Assembly: GCA_043814765.1 (NCBI GenBank)
Contig: JBDRJQ010000003.1
Span: 1 to 17,970 of the forward strand
Source of the DNA: Nanobdellota archaeon
GTDB taxonomy: Archaea > Aenigmatarchaeota > Aenigmatarchaeia > QMZP01
DNA: 17,970 nucleotides
Direction: 5' to 3'
Below, piece after piece: positions 13,684 through 15,380 of the stretch. The first letter of the stretch is position 1. Every line of letters begins with the position of its first letter. The notes below the pieces were generated by a model. It ran no database searches. It was not told the DNA's origin and saw only the letters and a list, made by a program, of their open reading frames with translations. A program made the position numbers and the translations under genes.

Positions 13684-14247
13684 ATGATTGACTGGAGAAT
13701 ACTGACAGCATCATTTGCTGCGATAATAGTTGTATCTTCTATGTTTATGGGAGGCATTGGAGGAGATTTTTTTTCTAACATACTTGATGATGTAAGCAAC
13801 TGGCTTGGCTCATCACCTTTTAGTGGATTTTTCATAACGCCAGTAGTCAAGACACATGATATTGATTTAACAATTTATCCTAAACAAATTTCATTAACTC
13901 CTGATTCTAGTGTAAACTTTAGCTCAGAATCCAGCGTTATTAGGAATTTTAAAGGAACCATAAATCTAGATTTTGAAGAACAGACCATTGTTTTAGAAGA
14001 AGCAGATAGTTCACTAAGATACGAATCGTCTATTCAGAACCTAGAGATAGAGTACATAAAATTGAATACACTATCGCTAGATGATTTAAAACTGAAGATA
14101 GCGCCTGACATAACATCAGAAAATGGTTCTGCAGAATTATACAACTTTCAAGGAAAACTTACAATAACTTCTGAAAGCCTAAAATTTGAAGGCAATGTAT
14201 CAAAAATAGTAGCAAAGATCGGAGATAGTACCTGGGAACTGAAATAA
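13684..14247 (+). CDS. Hypothetical protein with N-terminal membrane anchor or signal peptide and beta-rich extracellular domain
   Basis: 187-aa ORF with hydrophobic N-terminus (WRILTASFAAIIVVSSMFMGG), divergent from DUF1512; no recognised family. Confidence 0.7.
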   Translation: MIDWRILTASFAAIIVVSSMFMGGIGGDFFSNILDDVSNWLGSSPFSGFFITPVVKTHDIDLTIYPKQISLTPDSSVNFSSESSVIRNFKGTINLDFEEQTIVLEEADSSLRYESSIQNLEIEYIKLNTLSLDDLKLKIAPDITSENGSAELYNFQGKLTITSESLKFEGNVSKIVAKIGDSTWELK

Positions 14248-14248
14248 G

Positions 14249-14350
14249 TGGGACAGGTGGGATTTGAACCCACGACTCCACGGTCTTCAGCCGTGTGCTC
14301 TCCCAGGCTGAGCTACTGTTATGGCCTAAGGTAAACCCCCTTAAGTTCCC
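14249..14350 (-). tRNA. tRNA-Phe(GAA) with intron at noncanonical position 4/5
   Basis: Exon 1 GGGA (14350-14347) plus exon 2 (14318-14249) give GGGACAG TA GCTC AGCCTGGGA GAGC A CACGG CTGAAGA CCGTG GAGTC GTGGG TTCAAAT CCCAC CTGTCCC A, a complete 74-nt cloverleaf. Anticodon at 14288-14286; CCA not encoded. Confidence 0.92.
14319..14346 (-). other. 28-nt BHB tRNA intron in the acceptor stem of tRNA-Phe
   Basis: TACT-ATGG-GA^A-CTTAAGG...CCTTAGG-CCAT-AA^C-AGTA forms helix/3-nt bulge/4-bp helix/3-nt bulge/helix. Cutting after the second nucleotide of each bulge restores GGGACAG. Confidence 0.85.
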
Positions 14351-15117
14351 ATAGTATTGTCCCACTTCTTTATAACACTCTTAAGTTTTTCTTGTTTTAT
14401 ATTATCTTCAAAACCTATTTCTTTATAAAACTTTATTAAGGAATCCTTTCTTTTTATATACATTCTTAAAGGTTTGGTTATATTACCATCTTTTCTCTTA
14501 TTACTGGTTTTGAGAGTAAATATATTTGTACTTTGTATATGAAAATATTTATTAAGTCCATATCTAATTTGACTTAAAAAATCTTTAGAGTTATCCATCA
14601 GATTTATTACTTTCCAGAATTCTATTCTTATTCCAGGACTCTTTCCACCCCAAACACTTCCTTCACAAGTAAAGGCTCTTTGAACAAATCTTCTGAAAAA
14701 CCCTTTATTTTTCATAATCCACTCAGGTACTAAGAATTTATTAAGAACTTTATTTCCAATTGGTACACCAGAGAGATATAGCAACCTGGCTAAAGGCTTA
14801 CAATTTACACCATAGTTAAACGATGTACTAAATTTGTTGGTTTTACAGGGTCTAGGTTTCCCTTTTATACCAAAAAAATGATAGACTTCGTTTTCAAATC
14901 TATACATCTCTTTTTTTAGTTTGAATGTATAATCAAATCTCCATCGAGGGTTTCCTTGAAGATGACCATCACACATTAAATCAGCAACAATACCCGACAG
15001 TCTTTCTGATGCTGAAACAGGGAAACTATGTTTATATGGAAGTAATGCTTTCTGACCAGCGGTTTTGGATTTGTATTTAGCAAGAATTTGTTTAAATGTG
15101 ATGAGTTGTTGCCCCAT
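14341..15117 (-). CDS. Free-standing two-motif LAGLIDADG homing endonuclease (DOD/intein-like type)
   Basis: Motif 1 LSGIVADLMCDGHL, intervening LARLLYLSGVPIGNK...VPEWI, motif 2 FVQRAFTCEGSV, C-terminal KFYKEIGF...KQEKL. Very Lys-rich and visibly AT-rich; no intein splicing termini. Confidence 0.85.
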   Translation of the reverse strand: MGQQLITFKQILAKYKSKTAGQKALLPYKHSFPVSASERLSGIVADLMCDGHLQGNPRWRFDYTFKLKKEMYRFENEVYHFFGIKGKPRPCKTNKFSTSFNYGVNCKPLARLLYLSGVPIGNKVLNKFLVPEWIMKNKGFFRRFVQRAFTCEGSVWGGKSPGIRIEFWKVINLMDNSKDFLSQIRYGLNKYFHIQSTNIFTLKTSNKRKDGNITKPLRMYIKRKDSLIKFYKEIGFEDNIKQEKLKSVIKKWDNTMGT

Positions 15118-15138
15118 ATACTTATTTTATTTTTAAAT

Positions 15139-15146
15139 TTTAAATA
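15139..15146 (-). promoter_or_regulatory. Putative TATA box for the LAGLIDADG/tRNA-Phe transcript
   Basis: Minus-strand TATTTAAA at -29..-22 from ATG 15117, in an AT-rich spacer, so chance matches are possible. Confidence 0.45.
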
Positions 15147-15174
15147 TAGAAAAACATCGTGCTTTAATTATTAG

Positions 15175-15306
15175 CGCCTCAGGAAGGACTTGAACCTTCG
15201 ACCCCACGGTTTCTGCTCTTGGAAGGTGGAAACCTCCTTTGGATGAAACCCTTTCTTAAAAGGTTTCTTAACAGCCGTGTGCTCTAACCAGCTGAGCTAC
15301 TGAGGC
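15175..15306 (-). tRNA. tRNA-Asn(GTT) with 58-nt intron at canonical 37/38
   Basis: GCCTCAG TA GCTC AGCTGGTTA GAGC A CACGG CTGTTA [intron] A CCGTG GGGTC GAAGG TTCAAGT CCTTC CTGAGGC G. Anticodon at 15272-15270; CCA not encoded. Confidence 0.95.
15211..15268 (-). other. 58-nt canonical tRNA-Asn intron
   Basis: Central helix CTGT/GCAG, bulges TA^A and AA^A; the intron body folds into two hairpins (relaxed BHB). Confidence 0.88.
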
Positions 15307-15380
15307 ACATATATATGTTTAGTTTATAGTAAAGAAATAATACAGTGTAAATTTAAATAATATACACCAATAGAGGATTT

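Follow-up and report, generated by a model that had tools for sequence, protein, structure and literature searches.

For about two decades it has been debated why archaeal transfer RNA (tRNA) genes contain introns at unusual positions and by what route these introns move, with intron transposition and relics of split genes among the ideas on their origin. The question arises in concrete form in a 17,970-nucleotide (nt) stretch of contig JBDRJQ010000003.1 from a Nanobdellota archaeon (here called the window, meaning the whole stretch), where the open reading frame (ORF) of a predicted free-standing LAGLIDADG homing endonuclease runs into the 5' end of a tRNA-Phe gene that is split by a predicted 28-nt bulge-helix-bulge intron. 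Is this neighbourhood accidental, or do gene and intron belong together? We favour the second answer with moderate confidence: a free-standing LAGLIDADG gene probably forms a composite selfish unit with the short bulge-helix-bulge intron that splits the neighbouring tRNA-Phe in its 5' acceptor stem, and this unit resembles collaborative homing. The locus and its relatives offer a concrete agent for tRNA introns, namely an endonuclease family whose members are each tied to one tRNA 5' end and almost always face a small intron. This pairing recurs across DPANN archaea and suggests how unusual tRNA introns of archaea could originate and be disseminated. In the following, G000 denotes the genome of the window, G001 a genome of the same genus (g1), and L-numbers the loci compared.

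A predicted bulge-helix-bulge intron at the 5' end of tRNA-Phe

In the window, tRNA-Asn, the 258-amino-acid (aa) endonuclease ORF and tRNA-Phe follow each other in one direction on the minus strand (Table 1). ARAGORN reports the last of these as a contiguous gene (14322..14248). This version was rejected, as the first three of its seven acceptor pairs fail and Rfam covers only model positions 4-67 (14319..14253); because of this partial alignment, the first three acceptor nucleotides are considered missing from the contiguous gene. Every exon-1 candidate in the upstream 150 nt that restores an acceptor stem of 7 base pairs (bp) was enumerated, and the top solution combines GGGA as exon 1 with a 28-nt intron and an exon 2 that starts at 14318. 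After removal of this intron, GGGA plus CAG pairs 7/7 with the 3' strand CTGTCCC, and the remainder matches Rfam tRNA positions 4-67. Two other solutions were discarded: GGGA at 14363..14360 with a 41-nt intron, which has a 4/4 central helix without inner or outer helix and is unconserved in genome G006, and GGG at 14338..14336 with an intron of 16-18 nt, which forms just one to three of the four central pairs.

The 28-nt intron combines a 4/4 central helix (AUGG/CCAU, the 3' strand CCAU lying at 14324..14321) with an inner helix of 7 bp (14345..14339 with 14331..14325, loop 14338..14332), an outer helix of 4 bp, in which the leader UACU pairs with tRNA nucleotides 6-9, and 3-nt bulges (GA-A and AA-C). 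The stop codon of the endonuclease ORF is situated in the inner helix. The minimum-energy fold calculated by RNAfold is the same bulge-helix-bulge structure. When the upstream 150 nt were subjected to 5000 dinucleotide shuffles, a 4/4 central helix alone was obtained 642 times, and its combination with an inner helix of at least 4 bp and an outer helix of at least 3 bp twice. Folding energy is not distinctive (z = -0.51; 64/200 shuffles at least as stable) and was dropped as intron evidence, so that the case for the intron is built on geometry and comparison. Homologous introns at position 4/5 are found at L012, L033, L099, L100, L039, L040, L048, L069 and other loci; their inner helices are unrelated, and the central helices covary (AUGG/CCAU, GUGG/CCAU, GCGG/CCGC and ACGG/CCGU). 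As far as sequence and predicted structure can do so, these features confirm the 28-nt segment as a bulge-helix-bulge intron of tRNA-Phe.

The endonuclease ORF is co-oriented with tRNA-Phe and overlaps the tRNA gene by 10 nt (14350..14341). It starts 767 nt upstream of exon 1 (at 15117), and only its last two codons (ACT TAA, 14346..14341) are intronic. The initial annotation had read the terminal codons TGG GAC AAT ACT ATG GGA ACT TAA as tRNA leader, exon 1 and start of the intron; its coordinates, co-orientation and codon reading proved exact, and its placement of the stop codon within the intron is borne out by both the enumeration and RNAfold. It had also described the ORF as neither part of an intein nor contained in the intron loop, which agrees with a free-standing ORF that begins far upstream of so small an intron. 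The possibility of an intein- or intron-encoded enzyme was rejected on the same ground, the ORF being free-standing.

Association of intron and endonuclease gene

Forty-one homolog loci (L039-L078 and L084) were scanned automatically with a regular expression for a Phe-type D arm. Twenty-two of the 26 scorable tRNA-Phe genes that adjoin an endonuclease gene carry a bulge-helix-bulge intron at the 5' end (three at position 3/4, ten at 4/5 and nine at 9/10), and four of the central helix pairs are formed in 18 of these introns and three of four in the other 4. Ten loci of the 41 have no Phe-type D arm under the regular expression and four lack a clean T arm, none of the latter appearing intact by eye; L077 was left out as ambiguous, as it matches the expression yet is called tRNA-Ser by ARAGORN. 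The scanned loci include the close relatives L039/L040, L041/L042 and L046/L060. Divergently oriented endonuclease genes at a distance of 40-270 nt still face 4/5 introns (L049, L058, L064 and L067).

The window's order, with 91 genomes, served as baseline. A tRNA-Phe D-arm-to-anticodon pattern is present in 49 of them, and 44 of these have an intact 5' end (GGGnnnnTA). The five exceptions (G000, G006, G013, G329 and G017) all have a 4/5 intron, and an endonuclease gene stands beside that of G000 only; a tblastn search of the other four loci found none beside their tRNA-Phe. In G013, G329 and G017 there is no endonuclease profile match at E<=1e-15, and the single profile match of G006 groups with the Trp/Pro clade described below. 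A 5' intron is found in 22/26 endonuclease-adjacent tRNA-Phe genes versus 4/48 endonuclease-less ones of the order, a strong association in the sequences compared, with the limits that the baseline pattern is blind to tRNA-Phe genes with introns at 8/9 or 9/10, in the D arm or in the anticodon stem (42/91 genomes are unmatched), and that the genomes are related, so that the counts are not phylogenetically independent.

Comparisons within genera give a finer picture. In g1, G000 has both gene and intron; the tRNA-Phe locus of G001 has no copy of the endonuclease gene and no such intron, and its 5' end is intact, the two tRNA-Phe genes being 98% identical over a 58-nt exon stretch. In g44, gene and intron are both present in G348 and G350 and both absent from G349 and G351, which have intact 5' ends. 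Genus g102 comprises G152 and G153 with gene and intron, G150 with the intron only and the intact G151, while g110 comprises G174 and G175 with gene and intron, G177 with the intron only, and G173 and G176 with an intron at a contig end. Across these four genera, the gene never occurs without the intron and the intron sometimes occurs without the gene, which is the nested pattern that a role of the intron in immunity predicts.

A predicted single-chain LAGLIDADG enzyme

The window protein matches the Pfam family LAGLIDADG_3 (PF14528) with an E of 3.4e-4 and 21.3 bits, against a cut-off of 22.5 bits, and PF14528 is precomputed on 21 of 70 homologs among the matches listed. It contains two LAGLIDADG motifs, ADLMCDG with D50 and AFTCEG with E152, whose acidic residues are of the catalytic type. 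D50, G51 and E152 are invariant in 26/26 homologs, and the motif acids are kept in 20/20 rows checked. An AlphaFold2 model based on 26 homologs has a mean predicted local distance difference test (pLDDT) value of 94.1 and a predicted template modelling score of 0.91, and the predicted structure displays the pseudo-dimeric alpha-beta-beta-alpha-beta-beta-alpha fold. A Foldseek comparison with the PDB gave 141 matches at E<=0.001, the best of which are LAGLIDADG enzymes: the intein endonucleases TliVMA and PI-PfuI as well as I-Tsp061I, I-SceI and I-DmoI (7qsu at 2.2e-9, 1dq3, 2dch). A profile match to 1dq3 was also obtained (E 5.7e-5). The protein is therefore predicted to be a single-chain, two-motif LAGLIDADG enzyme with endonuclease activity. 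Model confidence is lower for the C-terminal residues 251-258 (pLDDT 69), so that the part of the protein encoded in the overlap gives the impression of an unstructured tail; apparently, the ORF just continues until it meets a stop codon in the tRNA region.

G000 encodes a second LAGLIDADG ORF of 303 aa (contig C1, L002:940-1946; PF14528, 37.6 bits). It ends within an uninterrupted acceptor stem, that of a tRNA assigned to Thr(UGU) by ARAGORN, and its stop codon TAG forms tRNA positions 8-10; this tRNA has other introns and none at the 5' end. On contig C17 (L003), a weak endonuclease match (E 1.9e-5) lies within a 1669-aa open frame, probably as the endonuclease domain of an intein in a large protein.

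An endonuclease family linked to tRNA genes

Seventy proteins of about 250 aa, at 40-64% identity, were found among the matches listed, and the named sources of such homologs are Aenigmatarchaeota, Micrarchaeota and Woesearchaeota. The endonuclease was found in 4/40 related genomes at 29-38% identity. Strong free-standing profile matches occur in about 27/371 genomes of the class, with internal stops in G111, G134 and G182. Sporadic presence and decayed copies together are the pattern of a selfish gene.

The gene neighbourhood was surveyed with ARAGORN, Rfam and our own scripts at 40 loci from one-genome-per-species contigs and in 20 fetched regions. At most of these loci, the endonuclease gene lies against the 5' end of tRNA-Phe, either co-oriented and often overlapping, or divergent. 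In a tree of 48 proteins inferred by maximum likelihood, for which the non-Phe and some Phe tRNA labels were assigned by eye, all 31 tRNA-Phe-labelled rows fall into one starred clade of 34 rows (support 96/95). A second starred clade of nine rows (100/100) contains five tRNA-Trp, two tRNA-Pro and two unlabelled rows, and a third clade (90/94) contains the three tRNA-Arg-labelled rows. These sister clades share the architecture of the window, in that the ORF tail enters a tRNA that a short intron interrupts in the acceptor stem or at position 9/10. The gene order at the Woesearchaeota locus L066, with tRNA-Asn, endonuclease and split tRNA-Phe, is that of the window. These comparisons show the family to be linked to tRNA-Phe, and the link in either orientation favours a connection at the level of DNA over one at the level of RNA.

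The coincidence raised at the outset would require that an ordinary non-canonical tRNA intron of DPANN archaea and an unrelated selfish endonuclease merely met in the spacer between tRNA-Asn and tRNA-Phe. These genomes often carry non-canonical introns, which do not persist for long, and orphan 4/5 introns occur in the same family of genomes, as a chance encounter would have it. The excess of introns beside the gene (22/26 vs 4/48), the confinement of all 31 Phe-labelled rows to a single clade and the recurrence of the architecture at Trp-, Pro- and Arg-labelled tRNAs in sister clades argue against it, and we regard coincidence as very unlikely.

At the sister-clade loci in genomes of the class (L091, L093-L097, L088 and L089), the endonuclease lies upstream of Pro(UGG), Trp(CCA) and Arg(UCU) tRNAs, whose anticodons were assigned by eye. 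The design of these loci is that of the window: the ORF tail contains a copy of the acceptor strand and is followed by exon 1, by a short intron that holds or abuts the stop codon, and by exon 2. At two Woesearchaeota loci (L048:1940-2289 and L055:2014-2444), a gene for archaeal RNase P RNA (Rfam, 101 and 97 bits, respectively) is directly followed by the endonuclease gene and this in turn by a split tRNA-Phe.

Host splicing machinery

The splicing endonuclease EndA of G000 is a 396-aa protein of the three-unit form (contig C37, L103:865-2055) and matches the ARMAN-2 epsilon2 enzyme (4fz2) over its full length (E 2.5e-94). According to excerpts of PMC3488258, the ARMAN-2 epsilon2 EndA has broad specificity and cuts strict as well as relaxed motifs. 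An RtcB ligase is also encoded (522.7 bits), and an RNase P RNA-like match reaches 57.8 bits, which is below the curated cut-off of 84 bits. Judging from these genes, the host can process non-canonical introns.

This machinery bears on the idea that the LAGLIDADG protein has been domesticated and acts on RNA, aiding the processing of the neighbouring pre-tRNA in the manner of a maturase. LAGLIDADG maturases exist, the bI3 maturase is among the fold matches, and the ORF may be co-transcribed with the tRNA. A dedicated helper is nevertheless difficult to reconcile with a complete EndA/RtcB pathway in the host and with orphan introns that persist without the protein; the invariant metal-binding acids, the patchy distribution with decayed copies and the adjacency in both orientations likewise point away from it. 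Such a function is highly improbable.

Duplicated acceptor strands

The tail of the endonuclease ORF contains a second tRNA-Phe 5' acceptor strand (copy 1, GGGACA at 14363..14358), 7 nt from exon 1. In the minimum-energy fold of the whole precursor (z -2.95), copy 1 and its neighbours form 10 bp with the 3' end and trailer of the tRNA. Acceptor copies of 5-10 nt that end at tRNA position 6-10 are present in 6/6 orphan-intron alleles and 15/24 endonuclease-side alleles, and in several genera with comparable alleles, copy 1 immediately follows the boundary between presence and absence of the gene. We infer that copy 1 is a scar of break repair; alternatively, it may hold the 3' strand while nucleotides 6-9 serve the outer helix of the intron.

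In G150 (L113), three tandem copies of GGGACAGTA(A) precede the 9/10 intron, with no endonuclease gene within 1.5 kb, and these may record repeated cutting and repair. An acceptor-like repeat at the ORF start (copy 0, ATATGGGGCAA), considered as one of two flanking direct repeats or as the border of a giant intron, was dismissed as a general property, the best match near the ORF start being at chance level in 17 co-oriented loci, with 0.4-8.5 matches expected per 150 nt.

A duplicated 5' tRNA fragment beside a functional 5' end is also what an integrase-type element would leave behind. In the model of Sugahara et al. (2012), in print for Caldiarchaeum tRNA-Thr (excerpts of PMC3293823), an intron-bearing attP rebuilds the 5' end of the tRNA and leaves a direct repeat of the tRNA fragment, and an integrase-bearing element lies between this repeat and the rebuilt gene. 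The window differs in this respect: only 7 nt and no element separate copy 1 from exon 1, neither an integrase nor other element genes were found in the window flanks, and the endonuclease gene is the sole DNA between the syntenic housekeeping flanks that is not shared with G001. An origin of this kind is improbable in the extreme.

A possible mode of homing

In the collaborative-homing reading, the enzyme would recognise the uninterrupted, conserved 5' part of tRNA-Phe, roughly tRNA positions 1-15, and would cut alleles that are free of the unit. The host's own chromosome would remain uncut, the 28-nt intron at 4/5 splitting the target site, and the epsilon2-type splicing endonuclease together with the RtcB ligase would excise the intron from the RNA and thereby keep the tRNA functional. 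When a cut allele is repaired on the template of one that bears the unit, the intron would be copied, often together with the endonuclease gene, and later decay or loss of the gene would leave orphan introns. The ORF, having no stop of its own ahead of the tRNA, would be read through leader and exon 1 and end in the intron, while the upstream acceptor-strand copy would most simply be a break-repair scar at about tRNA position 7-10. All three intron positions (3/4, 4/5 and 9/10) are contained in a 7-bp stretch.

Besides the blind spots of the baseline and the relatedness of the genomes, several observations weigh against this reading. Orphan introns are common, both in the order (4/48; G006, G013, G329 and G017) and in G150 and G177, and four of five intron-bearing genomes of family f1 have no endonuclease gene. 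Intron turnover is fast, every intron of tRNA-Asn and tRNA-Phe being different between G000 and G001. The leader and exon-1 context of the window (ACTATGGGAAC) is identical to that of the orphan G006, and this identity suggests that the intron may predate the gene in the window. Conversely, 4/26 adjacent tRNA-Phe genes are intact at the 5' end (L045, L057, L059 and L074), although the enzyme motif acids are kept. Finally, insertion of a gene beside the tRNA could alone destroy a site that reaches into the leader, making the intron unnecessary for immunity.

The last two points are central to an alternative in which the enzyme homes to the 5' flank or end of tRNA-Phe and gene insertion itself destroys the site; intron and acceptor copy would then be by-products of repair, hitchhikers or sequences acquired from donor alleles. 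The intact adjacent genes would need no intron, and the second LAGLIDADG ORF of G000, which ends in an uninterrupted acceptor stem, would fit equally well, as would the gene boundary directly upstream of copy 1 and the tandem copies of G150, which have the look of repeated repair. A by-product, however, should be neither near-universal (22/26) nor restricted to three positions that span 7 bp in the best-conserved part of the gene, and it should not stay a well-formed, covarying bulge-helix-bulge. Divergent genes up to 270 nt away, which still face 4/5 introns, also speak against this alternative, and we consider it unlikely.

The initial annotation had proposed collaborative homing and suggested asking whether the 4/5 intron co-occurs with the upstream ORF in relatives. 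The counts and the contrasts within g1 and g44 are in favour of co-occurrence, and the orphan introns and intact genes are not; the interpretation is thus partly supported, by the co-occurrence and the tRNA-Phe-linked family, with exceptions in both directions.

A broader proposal can be put forward tentatively, as a possibility rather than a probability. Homing endonucleases might be a main engine behind the birth and spread of non-canonical tRNA introns in DPANN archaea, with every clade directed at the conserved 5' end of a particular tRNA (Phe, Trp/Pro, Arg and others). The introns at 3/4, 4/5 and 9/10 would represent an immunity that travels with the gene and outlives it, and the copies ending at position 6-10 would be scars that mark the cuts. 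If this holds true, orphan introns accompanied by scars would be fossils of past attacks.

Relation to known systems

The closest described system is the collaborative homing of F-CphI and psbA. In cyanophage S-PM2, intron-free psbA is cleaved by the free-standing F-CphI, from which the phage's own genome is shielded by a group I intron (Zeng, Bonocora & Shub 2009, as described in excerpts of PMC6083498); T4 mobE/I-TevIII is a related system (excerpts of PMC2790892). Both in S-PM2 and in the family studied here, a free-standing endonuclease gene adjoins an intron-bearing gene, gene and intron co-occur, and the intron is proposed to block self-cleavage while the enzyme confers mobility on the intron. 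F-CphI is an Endo VII-like enzyme of a phage and is paired with a self-splicing group I intron in a protein gene, whereas the window encodes a LAGLIDADG enzyme in a cellular, archaeal host, and its family faces protein-spliced bulge-helix-bulge introns of 15-55 nt in tRNA acceptor stems. Unlike the F-CphI/psbA arrangement, the window ORF physically overlaps exon 1 and intron. Cleavage and protection have been demonstrated for F-CphI, and for the unit in the window we infer them.

I-DmoI and I-Tsp061I, which are encoded in archaeal ribosomal RNA introns (2dch and 2vs7 among the fold matches), share with the window enzyme the fold, the archaeal host, a stable RNA as target, the intron type and the splicing machinery. 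In the I-DmoI type, the ORF lies within the mobilised intron, whereas the window ORF lies outside an intron that is too small to code.

Free-standing Seg and Mob endonucleases of phages, which belong to the GIY-YIG or HNH families, carry out intronless homing with immunity conferred by sequence polymorphism. As in the window, their genes are located between conserved genes, and they spread by cutting naive alleles with co-conversion of the flanks; the LAGLIDADG enzyme and the tRNA intron set the window unit apart.

Among the published proposals for the origin of disrupted archaeal tRNA genes, one sees the introns as protecting integration sites (Randau & Soll, cited in PMC3293823), and another holds that integrating elements deliver them (Sugahara et al. 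2012, excerpts of PMC3293823). They have in common with our proposal an acceptor-stem intron that protects a conserved DNA target and a duplicated tRNA fragment alongside, but the attacker proposed here is a homing endonuclease next to the intron and not an integrase-bearing virus or plasmid. The initial annotation knew of no such arrangement in archaeal tRNA genes, and likewise a literature search, outside which subscription journals and supplements lay, returned no description of a homing endonuclease paired with an archaeal bulge-helix-bulge tRNA intron. If our reading is correct, collaborative homing would reach beyond the group I introns of phages and include protein-spliced introns of archaea, in cellular genomes, orphan introns would be explained as leftovers, and natural LAGLIDADG enzymes with targets in tRNA genes would be added to those known.

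Organisation of the locus

The positions of all features are compiled in Table 1.

Table 1. Coordinates of the tRNA-Asn, endonuclease and tRNA-Phe features in the window
Feature	Position	Strand	Basis or remark
tRNA-Asn(GUU), upstream border of the endonuclease gene	15306..15175	-	Rfam RF00005, 56.6 bits, model positions 1-71
Canonical anticodon-loop intron of tRNA-Asn, about 58 nt	about 15211..15268	-	ARAGORN with introns allowed, 58 nt; limits by eye
LAGLIDADG homing endonuclease gene (predicted), free-standing, single-chain, 258 aa plus stop	15117..14341	-	ORF list
TATA-like TTATAAAG inside the endonuclease ORF (codons GTT ATA AAG), candidate tRNA-Phe promoter	14368..14375	-	By eye
Copy 1, second tRNA-Phe 5' acceptor strand (GGGACA within AAGTGGGACA), in ORF tail codons AAG TGG GAC A	14358..14367	-	
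tRNA-Phe leader: 5' strand of outer helix UACU (14356..14353) and first half of central helix AU (14352..14351)	14351..14356	-	Equals ORF codons ACT AT(G)
tRNA-Phe exon 1, GGGA (tRNA positions 1-4), within ORF codons ATG GGA	14350..14347	-	
Bulge-helix-bulge intron (predicted), 28 nt, tRNA position 4/5	14346..14319	-	Holds ORF stop TAA (14343..14341)
tRNA-Phe(GAA) exon 2 (positions 5-73)	14318..14249	-	Rfam 49.9 bits, model positions 4-67; ARAGORN anticodon GAA

The TATA-like TTATAAAG occupies positions -25 to -18 relative to G1 of tRNA-Phe, and by eye the endonuclease-free allele of G001 has TTAAAATA at equal spacing; on this basis, the element is a candidate promoter of tRNA-Phe. The 3' end of tRNA-Phe is 1 nt from the stop codon of a convergent ORF (13684..14247), and the strand opposite the endonuclease ORF contains a 51-aa frame only.

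The flanking genes encode ribosomal protein S17e, a CBS protein and a DUF1512 protein and are syntenic with G001 at 73% identity. Both tRNA-Asn and tRNA-Phe of G001 contain an intron in the T loop and lack introns in the anticodon loop and at the 5' end. Between the syntenic flanks, the block that consists of the tRNA-Asn promoter, tRNA-Asn, the endonuclease gene and tRNA-Phe (window 14249-15362) is inverted relative to G001. The inverted block separates two species of one genus, and its G001 version (L011) does not contain the endonuclease gene.

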